Source: a virus
Lineage: Duplodnaviria; Caudoviricetes
Reading direction: 5' to 3' (one strand)
IMG/VR virus record: IMGVR_UViG_3300032295_000861
Location: 1 to 31,034 of that record
DNA: 31,034 bases
Position numbers and translations under genes: made by a program. The notes beneath the pieces were generated by a model. That model saw nothing but the letters and a program-made list of their open reading frames with translations, was not told where the DNA came from and did not search any database. The stretch's first letter is position 1. Each line of letters begins with the position of its first letter. Positions 2,144 to 31,034 of the stretch are shown piece by piece.

Positions 2144-2331
2144 TATCAATTGGGCACATTGCAAAGACCTACGGATTACTCCCTAGTGAAGTTGCAAGCC
2201 GTGCCACTACATTTGATATTATGATTACAGATGTGTATTCGACTTGGGAAAACTATCAAAAGAATCCTACTGCTATGAGTAATTTTAGTCAAGAACAACT
2301 GGCTGAAATTATAAAAAGAGGGAAAGAATGA
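2140..2331 (+). CDS. Tail assembly chaperone extension (gpT-like part of a G-T fusion of about 177 aa)
   Basis: In the -1 frame relative to 1799-2143, with no stop between the slippery site and this ORF. Confidence 0.7.
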   Translation: MISIGHIAKTYGLLPSEVASRATTFDIMITDVYSTWENYQKNPTAMSNFSQEQLAEIIKRGKE

Positions 2332-2606
2332 TGGCTGGACAAATTAACTTTAGAATTAATCAGATCAAAGGTATCTTAGATCCTTTGAAGATGGCCAAGG
2401 AAGCACACAAGGTCTTCAGGGCAAACACACCTATTAGGTCTGGTAATGCTAGACGCAATACCAACCTATATCAGGATACCATTGAAGCCAACTATCCTTA
2501 CGCACAGAGATTGGATCAAGGTTACAGTAAACAAAGGCCTGACGGAATGACCAAGCCAACAATGACATTTCTTCAGAATTATGTTAAAAAGAATTTAGGA
2601 AAATAA
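2328..2606 (+). CDS. HK97 gp10-like tail/neck component
   Basis: 'ANTPIRSGNARRN...NYPYAQRLDQGYSKQRPDGM' matches the P-x-x-[TS]G...YA..LE.G.S.QAP.G pattern of this family. Confidence 0.7.
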   Translation: MMAGQINFRINQIKGILDPLKMAKEAHKVFRANTPIRSGNARRNTNLYQDTIEANYPYAQRLDQGYSKQRPDGMTKPTMTFLQNYVKKNLGK

Positions 2607-2607
2607 T

Positions 2608-4755
2608 ATGGCAACCGTAGAAGAATTTAAAGTTAAAGTCACCACACAAGGCGTTGAACAACTTGATCGCTTGGGCAAAGTTAGTGATACTGTAAGGACT
2701 AAGTTATCAAGTCTAGGCACTACCATTGCAGGATTGGCCTTTGGTGGTTTTATTCAAGGTGCCATATCAGCCGCAGAACGCATTGATGATCTAAGCAATG
2801 CTACTGGTATTGCCGTAGGTACATTACTAGGGTTTGAACGAGCCCTAGATATTGCTGGTGGTAAGGCGGAGAATGCTGGTCGTGTTATCATGAGTTTCTA
2901 CAATGCCATTGAAGCAGCCAATGATGGTAGCCTTAAGGTTAGAGATGCTTTTAATAAAGTTGGTGTCAGCCTTGATGATCTAAGAAACAAAAGTGAAGCA
3001 GACCTATTACAGCAGACTGTACGGGGTCTAAGTGAATTAGAAGCAGGCAGTGAGCGTGCCAGTATTGCCACAACCTTACTGAGCAGAGCATTCCGTTCTG
3101 TTGATCCTAAACAGTTTCAGCAGGCATTGGCCACTGGTGACTTTAGTCAATTAGAAAAAAGTGTTCAACAGTCTGCAGCAGCCGCTGAACGCCTACAGTT
3201 GTCCTACAAAAATCTACAGATGGGCGCACTACAGGCAATTCAACCTATTATTGTGTTAATGGGTGACACTGAGGTAGGTGTTGAGAAAGCAAGATTGGCT
3301 GTATATGCTCTAGGCGCAGTATTTGCTGTGGCCATGGGAGCCAGTCTAATTAGAAACATTGCTACAATTAATAAGGCATTGGGAGTAACTGCGGCATTAA
3401 GCAACCTAGTTGGCAAAGGTCCTGTGGGTCTAATTGCCAAACTGGCTCTACTTGGTGGAGGGGCTGCTATAGCAGCCACACAATTAGATGATCTTATGGC
3501 GGCCAATGAGCGTCTTGAAAAGTCTATGGCTGATGGTGCAACTCCCGCACCTGAAAGTGGTAATGCTGGCAGAACACAAGAACTTGATGCTAGACAAAAA
3601 GCCGTATTAGAAAGTGGTAAGAGAGCAGCACAAAATCTTGCTGATGCTCAACTTCAAATTAGTTTAAGAAGTGCTAGTGAAATTGAACGCATTGAACTTG
3701 AAATGCGTAACAATATTGCCAAAGGTGTAGAAGAAATTAGATCAAAATCAGATTTAAGCGAAAGTGTAAGAGCCAAAGAAATTCTTTCGTTAGTTAGTAA
3801 AGAAACTGAAAAATCTTATTCTGATATTGCTAAGATTCGAAGAGACATTGATATAAAAGTTGCTACAGAGACCATGGCTCAAGCAGAACAAGATGCTAAA
3901 GAAATGGCTGCTTATTATCAACAAGTTGACCAGGCAAGATTACAGGCATTTGATCAAGTTGATGCGATTAAAAAACAAACTGAAGAATTACAAGGCCGCT
4001 TTGATTTAACTCAAAAGATTCTTGATTTAAGCACAACTGAACAAGAAAGACAAACTAAGTTATTTGATCTAGAGCAACAGAGAAAAGCCACTCTTGATGC
4101 TATTTCTAAGATCAAAGATTTACCCAACAATGAAAGACTTAGAAGAGAACAAGAACTCAATGCTGAATATGAAAAACGAATTGATCTGATTAACAAAGAA
4201 GCAGATGCAAGAAATGCCCGTGAACAAGACTTCTCTGCAGGCATTAGAGAATCAATGAAACGATATGAAGAATCATTGACTCCTCTCAAGCAGGGTCAAC
4301 AAATGGCCGAGAGTGTGTTCAGTAGCATGGGTTCAGCATTGGACAAGTTTGTTGAGACTGGTAAGTTTAACTTTGGTGACTTTGCCAAGAGTGTTATACA
4401 AGATTTGATTAAAATTCAATTGAGAGCCGCAGCCACACAGTTATTGAGCGCAGCGTTTGGTTCATTTTTTCCAATACCAGGCAAGGCCAATGGTGGTCCA
4501 GTGCAATCAGGACAACCTTACATAGTCGGTGAACGAGGTCCAGAATTGTTTATGCCTAACTCAGCAGGAACAATTGTTCCCAACGATAAATTATCAGGCG
4601 GTGCAGGCAGTGCTGGTGGATCTACAGTCAACAACTATTATACTATTAGTGCAATTGATGCCAAGTCCGTGGCTCAATTATTTGCAGAAAATAAAATGAC
4701 GCTACTAGGTACAGTTCGTCAGGCAGAGAAAGAACTGCCATTTAGAGGAAGATAA
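2608..4755 (+). CDS. Tail tape measure protein
   Basis: 715 aa, Ala/Leu/Glu-rich and helical, with the lambda-like C-terminal motif 'ANGGPVQSGQPYIVGERGPELFMP'. Confidence 0.92.
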   Translation: MATVEEFKVKVTTQGVEQLDRLGKVSDTVRTKLSSLGTTIAGLAFGGFIQGAISAAERIDDLSNATGIAVGTLLGFERALDIAGGKAENAGRVIMSFYNAIEAANDGSLKVRDAFNKVGVSLDDLRNKSEADLLQQTVRGLSELEAGSERASIATTLLSRAFRSVDPKQFQQALATGDFSQLEKSVQQSAAAAERLQLSYKNLQMGALQAIQPIIVLMGDTEVGVEKARLAVYALGAVFAVAMGASLIRNIATINKALGVTAALSNLVGKGPVGLIAKLALLGGGAAIAATQLDDLMAANERLEKSMADGATPAPESGNAGRTQELDARQKAVLESGKRAAQNLADAQLQISLRSASEIERIELEMRNNIAKGVEEIRSKSDLSESVRAKEILSLVSKETEKSYSDIAKIRRDIDIKVATETMAQAEQDAKEMAAYYQQVDQARLQAFDQVDAIKKQTEELQGRFDLTQKILDLSTTEQERQTKLFDLEQQRKATLDAISKIKDLPNNERLRREQELNAEYEKRIDLINKEADARNAREQDFSAGIRESMKRYEESLTPLKQGQQMAESVFSSMGSALDKFVETGKFNFGDFAKSVIQDLIKIQLRAAATQLLSAAFGSFFPIPGKANGGPVQSGQPYIVGERGPELFMPNSAGTIVPNDKLSGGAGSAGGSTVNNYYTISAIDAKSVAQLFAENKMTLLGTVRQAEKELPFRGR

Positions 4756-19438: not shown

Positions 19439-19951
19439 TCAACCATGCCTTCTAACATTACCTCGTCTAACTTGAGAGATTAAACTTTTAGATACATAAA
19501 ATTTATTAGCAAAATATTGATCAAGTTTAGAATCATTAGTAGATCTTATTTCAATAACATCTCCATTGGTTAATTTATGTTGAGCATGATCATCACCTGT
19601 TTTAATTAAATGATCATCAATACTATGAGATGTTATTTGCTTAGTAGTAGCAATTGAAAGATGTGATGGATTACAACATCTTTTATTGTTACAATGATGT
19701 AATAGGTAACCAGATTGATTAGGAGGAAGTTCAAGTAGATTAAATTTTTTATATTCTAAGGCATACATTATTCGATGCACTTTTTTAGATATTGTTTTTC
19801 CATCTAAAATAATAGTAGAATATCCATACCCCATGTTATCTACACATCCTGTCCAAATCCAACAATTTGAAGAAAGTTTATCAATTTTTTTCTCAATTGT
19901 TTGAATGCCAATACGAAGACGAGAATTTACTAAAATACGAGGAATAGCCAT
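19439..19951 (-). CDS. HNH homing endonuclease, reverse orientation
   Basis: CWIWTG...VHRIMY...LHHCNNKRCCNPSHL, with C-terminal 'KLTNGDVIEIR...FYVSKSLISQVRRG' HTH; AT-rich. Confidence 0.88.
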   Translation of the reverse strand: MAIPRILVNSRLRIGIQTIEKKIDKLSSNCWIWTGCVDNMGYGYSTIILDGKTISKKVHRIMYALEYKKFNLLELPPNQSGYLLHHCNNKRCCNPSHLSIATTKQITSHSIDDHLIKTGDDHAQHKLTNGDVIEIRSTNDSKLDQYFANKFYVSKSLISQVRRGNVRRHG

Positions 19952-20191
19952 ATGAAATTTTATAAAGATGAAGATACTGACCTACAATTACATGTTAGCA
20001 TATGTCAAGAAAGATATCAACAATTAGACCTCCGTTTAGGCAAAGTTGAGGCAAAATTAGACCAGATCGAAGAGAAAATAGACCGGTTTAAGGATGAAAT
20101 TGCCTGGCTTTTAATCAAGGGTGGCTTTGGTGTTATCATTACCTTATTAGGTAGTATTGCAGCCATTTTAAAACTATTTGGACATTGGTGA
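19952..20191 (+). CDS. Coiled-coil plus C-terminal transmembrane protein (XhlA/holin-like)
   Basis: 'LHVSICQERYQQLDLRLGKVEAKLDQIEEKI' followed by a hydrophobic helix; GAGGA RBS lies inside the reverse HNH gene. Confidence 0.55.
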   Translation: MKFYKDEDTDLQLHVSICQERYQQLDLRLGKVEAKLDQIEEKIDRFKDEIAWLLIKGGFGVIITLLGSIAAILKLFGHW

Positions 20192-20195
20192 CCTT

Positions 20196-20201
20196 TAAAT
20201 A
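20196..20201 (+). promoter_or_regulatory. T4-late-like promoter core TAAATA; leaderless start
   Basis: TAAATAggttcATG (5-nt spacing to ATG 20207). Confidence 0.6.
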
Positions 20202-20206
20202 GGTTC

Positions 20207-20509
20207 ATGGACCGAAAACAATTTGAATCATTATTAGACCAACACACCAAGAAATGGTGGATTGATGTAGATAAAAGCAACACTGGCCATCTAACTGGTC
20301 GTATTAAGAATGGCGTGCAAATGTCATCCTACTCTCCCAATCCCAGCGGATATCCTGTGGTATTGGAACACAAAATACCTTGTGAATTTTGCACCATGTG
20401 CTGTCGACAGGTAGAAGGCAAGCGAGAACTAGTTGACTTACAGAGCAAGGTAGTTCAATGTAAATGTGGTCTAAAATACCCAATATCTATTGACAGTTTA
20501 ATCAGATGA
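20207..20509 (+). CDS. Putative zinc-ribbon protein
   Basis: CEFC..CC and CKCG cysteine clusters. Confidence 0.6.
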   Translation: MDRKQFESLLDQHTKKWWIDVDKSNTGHLTGRIKNGVQMSSYSPNPSGYPVVLEHKIPCEFCTMCCRQVEGKRELVDLQSKVVQCKCGLKYPISIDSLIR

Positions 20510-20518
20510 GTAAATAAT
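20490..20518 (+). promoter_or_regulatory. Composite promoter: TTGACA -35 plus TAAATA/AATAAT
   Basis: TTGACA 20490-20495, TAAATA 20511-20516, and AATAAT at 17-nt spacing (20513-20518). Confidence 0.6.
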
Positions 20519-20521
20519 ATA

Positions 20522-20712
20522 GTGTGCGGTGAGGGGTTTTCTTGTTTGATTCCTAGTTATAATAACGCCATTTTATAATATCCTCTCTATACCTCACCAC
20601 ACACCTTAGTAACAGTGTTCTCATATGTAAATTCATAATGTTCCAAGACTGTCAAATCTTACTGTTACTAATGTGAAAAACCCCGAAGAGCAATTCCGAG
20701 GGGTTTTTCTTT
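20522..20712 (+). ncRNA. Putative antisense sRNA with two large anti-RBS/anti-AUG loops and a terminator
   Basis: Stem 1 20522-20534/20592-20604 (12/13 bp); stem 2 20606-20616/20661-20671 (11/11 bp); terminator stem 20675-20684/20700-20709 plus T-run. No sizeable ORF, and a promoter lies directly upstream. Confidence 0.65.
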
Positions 20713-20727
20713 GGCAATTTTAGCCTC

Positions 20728-20761
20728 TTTACAGGCCTAATTTTTTAGTCTATACTAAATA
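20728..20761 (+). promoter_or_regulatory. Composite promoter: sigma70-type TTTACA-17-TATACT overlapping TAAATA
   Basis: TTTACA 20728-20733, TATACT 20751-20756, TAAATA 20756-20761. Confidence 0.6.
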
Positions 20762-20806
20762 CTAATAACAAAATGCTTTGACAGGGCTTTTGTTTTAAGG
20801 AACAGT

Positions 20807-21205
20807 ATGAATTTGAATTTACTAACTCAATCCGAATTAAAAACTTATTATACTAATGTATGGGTTAAGACTAAGGGTCTTAAAATTCGAGATATTACAA
20901 ATCATCCTCAAATTGATGATGCTATTTTGTTGGTAACAATTCGTGACGAATACTGGTCATTTTTTAATGCAAGCAATAAAGGACTTTGGGCCGCTCTTTG
21001 GAATAAAGTCTACCATCTTCAATTTAAACTTAAAAATAAACATCTTAAACAATTAGAACAATTAGTAATTACAGGCACATCAAGGCAACAAGAATTAAAT
21101 CAAACAAGACAACTTATTAAAGCAAATCGTAATAGAATAAAAAAAGGGGTAGTTCATATGACGACTAATCCTACCCCCGCCGCAGAATCTCTTATTGGGT
21201 TTTGA
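20807..21205 (+). CDS. Hypothetical basic protein (candidate replication/regulatory factor)
   Basis: AAGGAA RBS; 132 aa. It has its own promoter, an antisense-targeted start and a hairpin-rich region downstream. No family recognised. Confidence 0.7.
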   Translation: MNLNLLTQSELKTYYTNVWVKTKGLKIRDITNHPQIDDAILLVTIRDEYWSFFNASNKGLWAALWNKVYHLQFKLKNKHLKQLEQLVITGTSRQQELNQTRQLIKANRNRIKKGVVHMTTNPTPAAESLIGF

Positions 21206-21484
21206 ATAACGGAAGGTGTCCACGACGCCAGGAAACTGGTAGCAGTAGAATATAGCCAAACATCTGCTCGCAAGGTCTCAATAAGTCTCTACCCTTACAG
21301 GGTCAAGTTCTGTAAGAGTTTTTACAGTGGTAGAGAGATGACTAGGGAATTAGAATTTTTTTTAAGTTCTAATCCTATTAGTCGTCTCTTGACTGCGTCT
21401 GTAAGATCTCTTTCAAAACTTAATCTTAAAAGATAATAGTTCGAGTAAACGGAGTTTACGATGAACAGATGTCGTAAGACATCT
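21146..21484. other. Multi-hairpin non-coding region (candidate origin or structured RNA)
   Basis: Stems include ggggtag/ctacccc, ccag-GAAA-ctgg, tctctacc/ggtagaga enclosing cttacag/ctgtaag, gagatgacta/tagtcgtctc, gtaaac-gga-gtttac and agatgtc-GTAA-gacatct. Confidence 0.55.
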
Positions 21485-21501
21485 ATTAATAAAGGAAATA
21501 T

Positions 21502-22032
21502 ATGATATTTGATGATAACACTAAAATTAGATTTAAAAAATTTATTAAAGAAGATATTACCACTAAATGTTGGGAATGGCAAGGAACTAAACTTCCTAGA
21601 GGATATGGAAGATTTAATTATAAAGGAAAATTTTATCTTGCTCATAGATTTAGTATGATGTTAGAAGGAAATGATGTTACTGGATTTTTTGTATGTCATC
21701 ACTGTGATAATCCTAAATGTGTTAATCCTTTACATTTGTTTTTAGGTACTCATATTGATAACATGAAAGACATGATATCAAAAGGTAGAAATAAAAATAT
21801 TATTAAAAAAAAATATACTAGACAATCTACTGGCGGCTTAAAAGGTATATTAAATCACAGTGCAAAACTTACAGATGATATTGTTCGTGAGATTAGAAAT
21901 AAAGCATATGTTGGAAAATCTGGAAGATATAATACTGGTGGTAATATTAAAGAACTTTCTAAAAAATATAATGTTTCAGGAACTACTATAAAACATATAT
22001 TAAATGGAAAGACTTGGAAACATGTGACCTAA
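21502..22032 (+). CDS. HNH homing endonuclease with C-terminal HTH
   Basis: CWEWQG...AHRFS...VCHHCDNPKCVNPLHLFLGTHIDNMKDM; 'AKLTDDIVREIR...LSKKYNVSGTTIKHILNGKTWKHV'. Confidence 0.92.
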   Translation: MIFDDNTKIRFKKFIKEDITTKCWEWQGTKLPRGYGRFNYKGKFYLAHRFSMMLEGNDVTGFFVCHHCDNPKCVNPLHLFLGTHIDNMKDMISKGRNKNIIKKKYTRQSTGGLKGILNHSAKLTDDIVREIRNKAYVGKSGRYNTGGNIKELSKKYNVSGTTIKHILNGKTWKHVT

Positions 22033-22093: not shown

Positions 22094-22519
22094 ATGGCAA
22101 GAAGTAAACATCCATTATACAAAACACACTATCAATGGTGGCGTGCCTGTAATACACCTGGAGTTGGACATTGGAATCAATATGGCGGTCTAGGTGTTAA
22201 AATGTATCGACCATGGAATCAACTCAAACTGGGTTTTGATCGTTTCGAGCAATGGGTTCTAGATCATTTAGGTCCAAGACCATTCCCTGAAGCAGTACTT
22301 AGAAGAATTGATACTACAGGCGATATCAAACCCGGTAATCTAATGTGGAGCACAAGACAGCATCTGTGCAACACTCGCAAGACCAACTTGATGATTAAAA
22401 TCAATGGTCAAAAAAAGAGTCTAGCAGATTGGGCTAGACATTACGGTAAAAATTATGACGCAGTCTACAGCCGAATTGTTGACTACGGATTTAAACCCAA
22501 GGACGCATTGACAAAATGA
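22094..22519 (+). CDS. Divergent HNH-like protein with C-terminal HTH
   Basis: 'YGGLGVKM...W...F..W...LGPRP...LRRIDTTGDIKPGNLMW' resembles the phage 'YGGRGI...DRIDN.G.Y.P.NCRW' family; 'KSLADWARHYG' HTH. Confidence 0.7.
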   Translation: MARSKHPLYKTHYQWWRACNTPGVGHWNQYGGLGVKMYRPWNQLKLGFDRFEQWVLDHLGPRPFPEAVLRRIDTTGDIKPGNLMWSTRQHLCNTRKTNLMIKINGQKKSLADWARHYGKNYDAVYSRIVDYGFKPKDALTK

Positions 22520-26801: not shown

Positions 26802-28361
26802 ATGAGCGATCAAACATTAAGCCAAGACTTTGCACGAGTCTCAACTACAAACTTAGAATACAGCCGCAACAGAGATCGTTGGGCTTTTCTATTAGATTCA
26901 TATGTAGGTGGAGATCAATACAAGCAGGGCACCTATCTAACCCGCTATCAACTAGAGACAGCACAAGAGTATAATGGTCGCATCAACAACACACCATTGA
27001 TCAATCATTGCTCGTCAATTATCTCAGTTTACACCAGTTTCCTATTCCGTGAAGAACCAGATAGAGACTTTGGCACATGGCAAGGCCGCCCTGACCTAGA
27101 AGCATTCTTAGAAGACTGCGACATGGAAGGCAGAGACCTAGACTCATTCATGAAGGATGTGGCAACTTGGAATTCAGTGTTTGGCCATTGCTGGTTGTTA
27201 ATGACCAAACCCAACATTGGTGCTGCCACACAAGCAGATGAACAAGTCTTAGGACTACGACCTTGGCTTAACCTATTAACACCATTGGCTGTATTAGATT
27301 GGACTTGGGAGCGAACACCCACTGGCTACTATGAATTAACAGAGTTCAAATACATTGAAGAAATTGTTGACAAGATCACTATTGTCAAAGAATGGACCAA
27401 GTCAGAGATCCGCACTTGGGTCATGGATGATCAAAATAAGAAAGCCGCACTAAAAAGCATAGAAGTTAATGGACTAGGTATGATACCTGCTGTACTGGCC
27501 TATAACAAGCGCAGTATTGTCAAGGGCATTGGTGTTAGTGACATTGCTGACATTGCTGATCTACAGCGTATGATCTATAACTTGACCAGTGAATTAGATC
27601 AAAGTCACAGACAAGACGGACATCCCAGCCTTGTAGTCACACCTGATGTACAGTATGGCAGTGGTGCTGGTGCTGTAATAGTTGTGCCAGAAAATAGTGA
27701 TCCTGGCCTAAGACCTTATTATCTAGAGCATGGTGGTGCTAACATTGTCAGTCTACACAACACAATACAAAAATTAGTGGACAACATTGACAAAATTGCC
27801 AACACTGGTGGAGTTCGTGCTACAGAAAGCAGAACACTGTCAGGTGTAGCCATGGAAGTTGAATTTAGTTTGTTGAACAGTCGTCTTGCTGAAAAAGCAG
27901 ATAACTTAGAACTTGCTGAAGAACAATTATGGGCAATATTTGCAGCCTATCAAGGATTAGATTCCTCAGAGGTAGAAGTAGAATATCCAGGCAGTTTCAA
28001 CATCCGTGATGATCAACGAGAATTCCAGCAACTGGCCAGTGCCAAGTCAGCGGCCACTGATCCTGTATTATTGCGTGTCATTGACGAAAAACTATTAGAA
28101 ATGTTAGGTGAAGAAAAAGAAAGATTGCCCTACATTGATATCAATCCTATCCCAGGTAGAACATATCCTGATGGCCAAGCAATCCCAGAGAGTCTACCAC
28201 CATTATACATAGACAGCGCAGATCCACAAGTCCCTGAAGGACAGAACTGCCAAGGTTGCGAATATTATAAATCCACTGAAGGTTACTGTACCAAATTTGA
28301 TGCACTAGTCCGTGCTACTTGGTGGTGTGCGAAATTCGAGCCCGCAGAAGAGGACTATTGA
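26802..28361 (+). CDS. Portal protein with C-terminal HiPIP-like 4-Cys extension
   Basis: Follows TerL; SPP1-like portal features ('NGLGMIPAV', 'GVSDIADIADLQRMIYN', 'SGVAM'); C-terminal C-x2-C-x9-C-x12-C. Confidence 0.9.
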   Translation: MSDQTLSQDFARVSTTNLEYSRNRDRWAFLLDSYVGGDQYKQGTYLTRYQLETAQEYNGRINNTPLINHCSSIISVYTSFLFREEPDRDFGTWQGRPDLEAFLEDCDMEGRDLDSFMKDVATWNSVFGHCWLLMTKPNIGAATQADEQVLGLRPWLNLLTPLAVLDWTWERTPTGYYELTEFKYIEEIVDKITIVKEWTKSEIRTWVMDDQNKKAALKSIEVNGLGMIPAVLAYNKRSIVKGIGVSDIADIADLQRMIYNLTSELDQSHRQDGHPSLVVTPDVQYGSGAGAVIVVPENSDPGLRPYYLEHGGANIVSLHNTIQKLVDNIDKIANTGGVRATESRTLSGVAMEVEFSLLNSRLAEKADNLELAEEQLWAIFAAYQGLDSSEVEVEYPGSFNIRDDQREFQQLASAKSAATDPVLLRVIDEKLLEMLGEEKERLPYIDINPIPGRTYPDGQAIPESLPPLYIDSADPQVPEGQNCQGCEYYKSTEGYCTKFDALVRATWWCAKFEPAEEDY

Positions 28362-28671
28362 TATCAGGACCAGTCCATTGATTTCTGACTCTCTTTTTAT
28401 TTTTCATATCATCCATATTCTCTTGGTGGGTGCCTAAAAATAAATGAGCAGGATTGATACAACGACGATTATCACAACTATGACAAACATCCATATTATC
28501 AGGAAGGTGCCCATTGGCAAGCAAGAATGCCAATCTATGTGCGGCATATCGTTTTCCGTGATACCACGCTTGTCCATAACCCCAAATGGTAGTTGTCTTA
28601 CTCCACTCCCAACAATCGTTTGGAGTTTTTATTGTAGAATTAAAAATGTTTTCAGGTGTATTCTTTCGCAT
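28315..28671 (-). CDS. HNH endonuclease, reverse orientation, overlapping portal 3' end
   Basis: CWEWS...AHRLAF...VCHSCDNRRCINPAHLFLGTHQENMDDM. Confidence 0.9.
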   Translation of the reverse strand: MRKNTPENIFNSTIKTPNDCWEWSKTTTIWGYGQAWYHGKRYAAHRLAFLLANGHLPDNMDVCHSCDNRRCINPAHLFLGTHQENMDDMKNKKRVRNQWTGPDINSPLLRARISHTTK

Positions 28672-30578: not shown

Positions 30579-31034
30579 ATGGCATTCATTACTTCAGGTA
30601 GTACAGTTATAAGTTTTGCTGAATATGAAGATGTTCTAGCAATTGACCAACGCCTATTTGAGGCTAATGAAGGCTTTACTGATGTTATTGTTGAGGATGC
30701 GTTGATCAAAGCGACCACTCGTATCCTTAACAAGATTAGAGCCAGTGACTGGTGGAAGAATTACTATATCAGTAGAACTACTGATTTGAGTAGCATTGCC
30801 ACTAGGACTGGTTATAGTTTGCCTAGTCCAGTTGGTGCTAAGATTCTAACCCGCAAGGACGAGTTTCAAGACATGTGTGTTTATTTCGCACTTGCTGAAT
30901 ACTTGTACCCCAAGGTTGCAGATTTTGGCAACACAGACTCAGCAGAGCGTCAGAAGATTGGTTTCTATGATGAGAAGTTTAGAGCAATGTTCACAGATTT
31001 GCTAAACGCAGGTGACTGGTATGATTTTTCAGGT
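30579..31034 (+). CDS. 5' part of putative head-tail adaptor/connector (continues through the junction to stop at 186)
   Basis: ATG 30579 (MAFITSGSTVISFAEYEDVLAIDQRLFEANEG...), open to the end of the window. Confidence 0.75.
   Translation, partial: MAFITSGSTVISFAEYEDVLAIDQRLFEANEGFTDVIVEDALIKATTRILNKIRASDWWKNYYISRTTDLSSIATRTGYSLPSPVGAKILTRKDEFQDMCVYFALAEYLYPKVADFGNTDSAERQKIGFYDEKFRAMFTDLLNAGDWYDFSG
30912..31034. repeat. Terminal direct repeat, copy 2
   Basis: Identical to 1-123. Confidence 0.97.

Follow-up and report, generated by a model that had tools for sequence, protein, structure and literature searches.

A shape-conserved, two-loop RNA element of small tailed phages with one loop complementary to the leader of the adjacent gene

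Antisense control near the 5' end of an early or replication transcript is exercised by the P4 CI RNA and by the plasmid copy-number antisense RNAs (RNA I, CopA, ctRNA). The plasmid RNAs are made from the strand opposite their target and are fully complementary to it. In the account of the phage C4 RNA given in PMC5320573, the loops pair bipartitely with the ribosome-binding site (RBS) and an upstream site of C4's own downstream operon, and loop changes set specificity. The SviR RNA of the Vibrio cholerae PLE is described as having separate seeds for its own and for helper transcripts, and as reducing how much of a putative structural protein of the helper is translated (bioRxiv 10.1101/2022.04.08.487710). 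Here, we describe an RNA element that shares features with both C4 and SviR and assess its likely targets.

The element lies in what we call the window, the whole stretch of DNA that was analysed, which is a complete virus record of 31,034 bases with terminal repeats. The two ends of the record (1–126 and 30909–31034) form a repeat inside a head-tail gene, which we read as the assembly overlap of a circular genome. The window encodes terminase, portal, scaffold, capsid, tape measure and tail proteins together with five HNH nucleases; a small holin-like protein at 19952–20191 has a weak XhlA match (E 0.008). Among its 31 + 8 proteins there was no PHROGs-type match to replication, integration or sigma families, apart from a spurious tail-fibre stretch, and targeted searches of the window for sigma70 region 2 and for the PolA-like gene of the clade were empty. 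Close variants of the window were found in freshwater and lake runs X5–X7. By capsid, the nearest annotated phages are the HTVC111P-type pelagiphages and DSL-LC06 (40–49% identity). HTVC111P differs from the window in lacking a strand bias of the motif TAAATA (37 vs 41) and in carrying annotated DnaD and regulator genes. Searches of the annotated phages by blastn with the RNA region and with loop 1 returned none and 17 chance-level records, respectively, single-protein scans using both genes that flank the element did not find relatives, and our literature search on the clade, its promoter use or its RNA found nothing pertinent. The features of the window used below are as follows.

20490–20518, + strand: P1, sigma70-like promoter TTGACA-17-AATAAT (11/12 match)
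20511–20516, + strand: TAAATA late-type promoter core within P1, overlapping the sigma70-like site
20522–20604, + strand: stem 1 (arms 20522–20534 and 20592–20604), 12/13 pairs, enclosing the 57-nt loop 1
20552–20588, + strand: putative guide 1, an anti-start-codon and anti-Shine-Dalgarno segment that resembles the complement of jumbo-phage tail-sheath starts
20606–20671, + strand: stem 2 (arms 20606–20616 and 20661–20671), 11 perfect pairs, enclosing the 44-nt loop 2
20628–20644 and 20649–20656, + strand: putative bipartite guide 2, with complementarity to gene 20807 at its leader and start
20675–20712, + strand: intrinsic terminator hairpin (20675–20709) and U-run, with a U-run also on the other strand
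20728–20761, + strand: P2, sigma70-like promoter (10/12 match) predicted to drive the target gene, overlapped by TAAATA at 20756–20761
20777–20784 and 20799–20815, + strand: candidate target sites in the P2 leader, the latter spanning the Shine-Dalgarno region and start codon
20807–21205, + strand: candidate target gene, 132 aa, predicted to be all-helical
21150–21500, no strand assigned: another conserved non-coding structure, with long hairpins, that accompanies the 132-aa gene family
1165–1590, 19439–19951, 21502–22032, 22094–22519 and 28315–28671, two on the opposite strand: HNH endonuclease genes, two with their own TAAATA

The element is about 190 nt long and folds with a minimum free energy of −51.3 kcal/mol (z −4.67), a stability reached by none of 200 shuffles. 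Both stems and the terminator are present as in the original prediction, made from the letters alone, and stem 2 begins one base past stem 1. The promoter proposed with them is also present, but a scan of the window returned 12 promoter sites against 13.0 ± 4.2 in shuffles, so the sigma70 match at P1 is insignificant alone; the overlapping TAAATA had been missed. The terminator scan reported the hairpin on the − strand only; the hairpin is bidirectional. Both sequences that had been quoted as translation-initiation regions complementary to the loops occur in the window, as do both copies of GAGGGGTTTT, one in the 5' arm (20531) and one in the terminator (20698). An alternative fold had been proposed from this repeat, and here the relatives disagree: the repeat is lost in the closest variants, and pairing between the 5' region and a terminator arm at −10 kcal/mol or better occurs in only 5 of 26 family members. 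Rfam yielded nothing at gathering score for the window and 12 related loci, the C4 model included, and a search of 20300–21600 down to E 10 gave 11 weak matches, all far below cut-off and C4 (RF01695) not among them. The plasmid model ctRNA_p42d reached 16 bits, where its cut-off is 50. The neighbouring element at 21150–21500, which may be a candidate origin, is conserved in G001, L396, L397, L111 and contigs of X3 and X7.

The RNA belongs to a family of 29 members, all in small (~30 kb) tailed phages and absent from Rfam. Each opens with a TAAATA promoter, followed by one or two coaxial stems with variable loops (10–118 nt) and usually a terminator; a second promoter and an early gene come next. 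Spacing is tight: stem 1 begins 1–6 nt after TAAATA, the second stem (in most members) 0–5 nt later, then the terminator, and the second leader begins 20–67 nt past every one of 26 members. Loci were gathered by terminase, by promoter-terminator pattern, by a 132-aa or PolA-like neighbour, and from whole records; all statistics use 26 members, with three more found later. Since TAAATA was the search key, its presence at P1 of all members is by construction, and some members were chosen by eye. A descriptor of TAAATA, stem and terminator gave 14 distinct matches at 2343 TAAATA sites (280 loci) and none at 2343 shuffled controls; L174, L240, L254 and L274 were dropped from these, and other matches were dropped if they lay in genes or had no second promoter. 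In a further set, 11 of 36 loci passed, of which two repeated G011 and G012; L439 was dropped, and L403 and L428 were added by eye. A member is present in 12 of the 13 complete clade genomes examined (missing in G013), whereas the descriptor search found no such RNA in HTVC111P, DSL-LC06 or at ~940 TAAATA sites in nine large-phage stretches.

Members share shape and not sequence. There are 25 distinct 5' arms among the 26 members, and the stem-1 arms carry swapped sequences that pair with their own partner at 10.5 of 11 positions and with the arms of other members at 6.4. MAFFT on 11 members left the stems unaligned (mean identity 36%), so covariation was counted directly and a covariance model was omitted. 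Such stem covariation was the check put forward with the original prediction, as were variable loops complementary to translation-start regions, which hold across the family. The loops also prove swappable, as had been supposed: near-identical phages in runs X3, X5 and X6 match the window up to 20537 and then carry a different loop. In X3, there is one mismatch over 20036–20537 and divergence sets in exactly past the stem-1 5' arm, suggesting exchange of either the loops or the entire downstream cassette. Altogether, the RNA family is real, conserved and, as far as we have searched, undescribed, and it would be a variant of the phage trans-acting antisense RNAs. A model of it may be among the viral structured RNAs catalogued in PMC10690425; six contig identifiers had no match in three of the supplementary files of that paper.

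Of the two guides in the original prediction, the one in loop 2 has gained a likely target, which had been missed: the leader of the next gene, 130–170 nt downstream. In the window, loop 2 forms two blocks of pairing, at 20777–20784 and 20799–20815, and the start codon of gene 20807 is included; of 6152 genome windows this leader is the best (−26.5 kcal/mol), and in a second genome-wide ranking it comes 1st of 2460. When all 26 leaders compete for each RNA, 8 RNAs rank their own leader first and 18 place it among the top three, a result equalled in none of 100,000 permutations; the misses are G010 (25th), L435 (12th), G015 (9th) and L397 (7th). The own leader beats the own upstream DNA in 21 of 26 members, and the own sequence shifted by +90 and +180 in 22 and 23. 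In 16 of 26 members the best-scoring helix reaches the Shine-Dalgarno region or the start codon, and in 19 it begins no more than 15 nt from P2. For the three members found later, the own leader ranked 1, 2 and 27 of 29, the last being G005. Genome-wide ranks in nine complete genomes were 1, 27, 48, 3, 27, 1844, 1, 107 and 133 of ~2300–3000 windows, which for five of the nine is no better than the top 1–6% and for G010 is poor.

The main argument for function is that this loop-leader rule survives gene swaps, as it persists across unrelated downstream genes. The slot after the RNA holds the 132-aa family, a 347-aa PolA-like protein, others, or no long open reading frame (ORF) at all (G008 and G009). 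The 132-aa family has 18 proteins, predicted to be helical and soluble, and searches of Pfam, PHROG, Atlas and PDB gave no functional assignment (best Z 7.0, helical). The 347-aa protein (L043:3783–4826) has no Pfam or PHROG match; it has a predicted minimal family-A polymerase fold, 429 relatives and structural neighbours that include D5-helicase fusions, and the PolA-like fold of the slot gene in G011 has a best E of 8.4e-5 with 15 matches at 1e-3. A type I toxin-antitoxin pair was rejected, as the candidate targets are 132-aa soluble helical or 347-aa PolA-like proteins and not a hydrophobic toxin shorter than ~60 aa. We judge from the sequences that the element is very probably an expressed RNA and that guide 2 probably represses the adjacent gene. 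The RNA would be transcribed from P1, and guide 2 would pair in trans with the P2 transcript at its leader and start codon, so that the early gene is repressed. Less firmly, the target operon may be a replication or early module, in which case the RNA would set copy number or stop early genes once late transcription begins. The family would offer a natural scaffold whose shape is kept while its guides are rewritten to track their targets, with ~29 cognate guide-target pairs.

The same complementarity could instead act in cis, as a read-through attenuator from P1, or on DNA, with the hairpins serving as a single-stranded-DNA origin or primer structure beside a replication gene. Tests of wobble pairs and strand do not favour RNA: the counts of G-U against A-C (11 vs 8 for stems, 9 vs 10 for guide helices) do not tell pairing in RNA from pairing in DNA, and + outscores − in only 17 of 26 members. 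Pairing often falls at the extreme 5' end of the P2 transcript (the 19 members above), even where no ORF follows, and some members have a PolA-like neighbour. However, 24 of 26 members have a terminator between guide and target, with G010 and L436 set by hand. A promoter of its own also precedes the target, the antiterminator fold is not kept among relatives, and RBS or AUG is touched by the 16 helices above. We consider pairing in cis or on DNA unlikely.

An RNA that acts in trans on the adjacent leader comes closest to C4 of P1 and P7, being likewise phage-encoded and antisense from the same strand as its target, with loops that pair bipartitely and co-vary with the RBS region downstream. 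It does not match the C4 model, however, and C4 is a 77-nt RNA of three stem-loops produced by RNase P processing, whereas the present RNA has two long coaxial stems with its own promoter and terminator. Its target operon would be replication or early, and that of C4 is anti-repressor. A plasmid copy-number RNA of the opposite-strand kind was rejected, as one strand carries both guide and target here, at separate places and with partial complementarity, and the two must co-evolve.

The promoters of these phages bear on the question of whether they depend on another phage. The window shows the T4-type late-promoter pattern, in which the TAAATA core lies upstream of genes and is avoided elsewhere: 11 copies are on the coding strand and 2 on the other, with 10 outside long ORFs. 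Across the clade, TAAATA likewise lies between genes on the coding strand, and its opposite-strand count is two or fewer in 10 of 13 genomes. P2 carries TAAATA in 22 of 26 members. A sigma70 match of at least 9/12 accompanies P2 in 10 of 26 compared with 5 of 87 other TAAATA sites, and P1 in 5 of 26, the window included. In the large myoviruses retrieved, TAAATA precedes sheath, tube and neck genes and stands before 44 of 154 called genes in G039; their sheath is that of the PA5oct, Atu_ph07 and PBECO4 group. For phage CBB, PMC5259590 reports ATAAATA as a late motif together with a gp55-like sigma, and late transcription in T4 is described as requiring gp55, gp33 and gp45 (PMC7892883). In the clade genomes G001–G017 and the window, TAAATA precedes genes and neither a sigma factor nor a replicase was detected; these are possibly virion-complete parasites of jumbo phages.

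This promoter arrangement suggests that host polymerase can make the early gene, while the virion genes and the RNA of most members would await a helper's late sigma. With less support, TAAATA may be read by the gp55-like sigma of the helper. No endolysin was recognised among the scanned proteins of the window, which would fit dependence on another phage for lysis. Overall, we lean slightly toward helper dependence of the small phages, and a common aquatic phage clade seems to be wired to the late promoter of another phage.

If a helper exists, its transcripts are candidates for loop 1. For the window itself, no target of loop 1 stands out among its own genes, sibling leaders or clade starts. 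Across the family, 12 of 15 distinct anti-AUG loops read M-A-(L/I/V) in reverse complement (third codon with middle T), the proportion being 101 of 434 among clade starts and 7 of 34 among the M-A starts of large phages. A pattern common to the G001 and G009 loops found 60 loci, 24 of them at likely starts, and among the matches were six jumbo tail-sheath contigs, two tail-tube contigs and one clade capsid start. Sheath and tube were picked post hoc, after these matches had been viewed. Sheath proteins start with M-A-L-V-S-P-G (86 of 120) or M-A-L-T-S-P-G (28 of 120), and close-type tube starts include M-A-I-A-S-L, M-A-V-S-S-L and M-A-I-S-T-L (28 of 150 proteins). The G001 loop spells the sheath start M-A-L-V-S. 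The G003 loop, found after the idea had formed, spells M-A-I-A-S-L-T (p 0.001–0.004), of which M-A-I-A-S-L is a jumbo tail-tube start, and the G004 loop fits M-A-V-S-S with wobble (p 0.02). Window loop 1 agrees with the sheath start at 12 of 15 positions, with three mismatches (p 0.002 if that peptide is taken by itself, 0.06 across 15 peptides). The loops of G005, G016, G017 and L396 are not outstanding (p ~0.5 over seven codons for G005 and G016). Over the 12 loops not used in forming the idea, shuffling gave a combined p of ~0.007–0.01, which, like the other loop-1 p-values, overstates the significance because the loops are related. Among 39 M-A starts, the best of seven sheath and tube starts had a mean rank of 2.75 vs 5.0 expected (P 0.005), a comparison in which G001 and G009 are circular. 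With 237 real starts as candidates, from five large-phage fragments none of which is a known true partner, no loop clearly beat its shuffles; window loop 1 ranked sheath 6th, at −17.9 kcal/mol. Separately, a pattern from the window and G008 loops found 74 loci, with a 193-aa M-A-L-W-G protein as best start match, and was rejected (p 0.64 vs shuffles for the window). Altogether, we treat the tail-gene reading as a lead and not a finding, and tentatively propose that guide 1 is aimed at helper tail genes.

It is quite possible, if somewhat short of our preference, that the RNA is purely self-regulatory, loop 1 being a leftover from the exchange of cassettes or a generic, weakly acting anti-RBS segment for the phage's own late genes such as capsid. 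Single-stem members (G002, G014, G015, L396 and L397) do carry an anti-AUG loop beside an M-A gene of their own, the cassette exchange point lies at the stem-1 arm, and the major capsid start is the best of the window's own genes for loop 1. That pairing is weak, however (−16.4 kcal/mol), the window's own genome ranks only 6th of nine for this loop, and two-loop forms recur in many lineages. Moreover, seven loops lie close to an own gene beginning M-A, and in five of these the third codon follows M-A-(L/I/V) instead of that gene.

Loop 1 could also be an immunity guide against the early leaders or capsid starts of sibling small phages, in the way C4 acts between P1 and P7. Loop 1 of G001 shares a 20-nt match with the capsid start of L442, a distant clade-mate, and that of G008 forms a good pairing with the leader of L407. 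Yet L442 was retrieved with a pattern built from the G001 loop itself, eight of nine loops did no better than on control starts, and for most of 10 loops the best energies over 2230 clade starts lay within what shuffles gave, so that we regard sibling immunity as quite unlikely. Host mRNAs are a very unlikely target in our estimation. Loop 1 does have a generic anti-SD/anti-AUG sequence, which would suit such a role; the host-link search gave only two metagenome-bin contigs and speaks neither for nor against it.

Taking both loops together, we find it fairly likely that this is a trans-acting antisense RNA in which loop 2 likely represses the adjacent early gene and loop 1 possibly silences jumbo tail sheath or tube genes, the latter in a co-infecting phage on which the small phage would depend. 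By analogy, the RNA may be likened to C4 for its self-target and to SviR for possible two-genome targeting, as a member of neither family. As in SviR, there may be separate seeds; here the own seed is supported and the helper seed is suggestive, with no real site above controls. SviR is described as conserved across PLEs, whereas here sequence is free and shape alone is kept, and PLE lacks a virion of its own while the present element encodes capsid, portal, terminase and tail. In its widest form, which we consider rather doubtful, the proposal would make the 30-kb phages virion-complete parasites of jumbo myoviruses, a bacterial counterpart of the virophages, borrowing a late sigma and using an exchangeable two-loop RNA to check both their own replication gene and the giant's sheath or tube. 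Should loop 1 indeed silence jumbo tail genes, one fully tailed phage would be interfering with another by means of a guide RNA, and helpers could be named for a clade that has no known host.

One further sequence was seen past the second promoter. In L006 and L027, a GC-rich stretch 100–130 nt downstream of it is conserved at the nucleotide level, in different reading frames and with no long ORF, and L032 carries a looser form.
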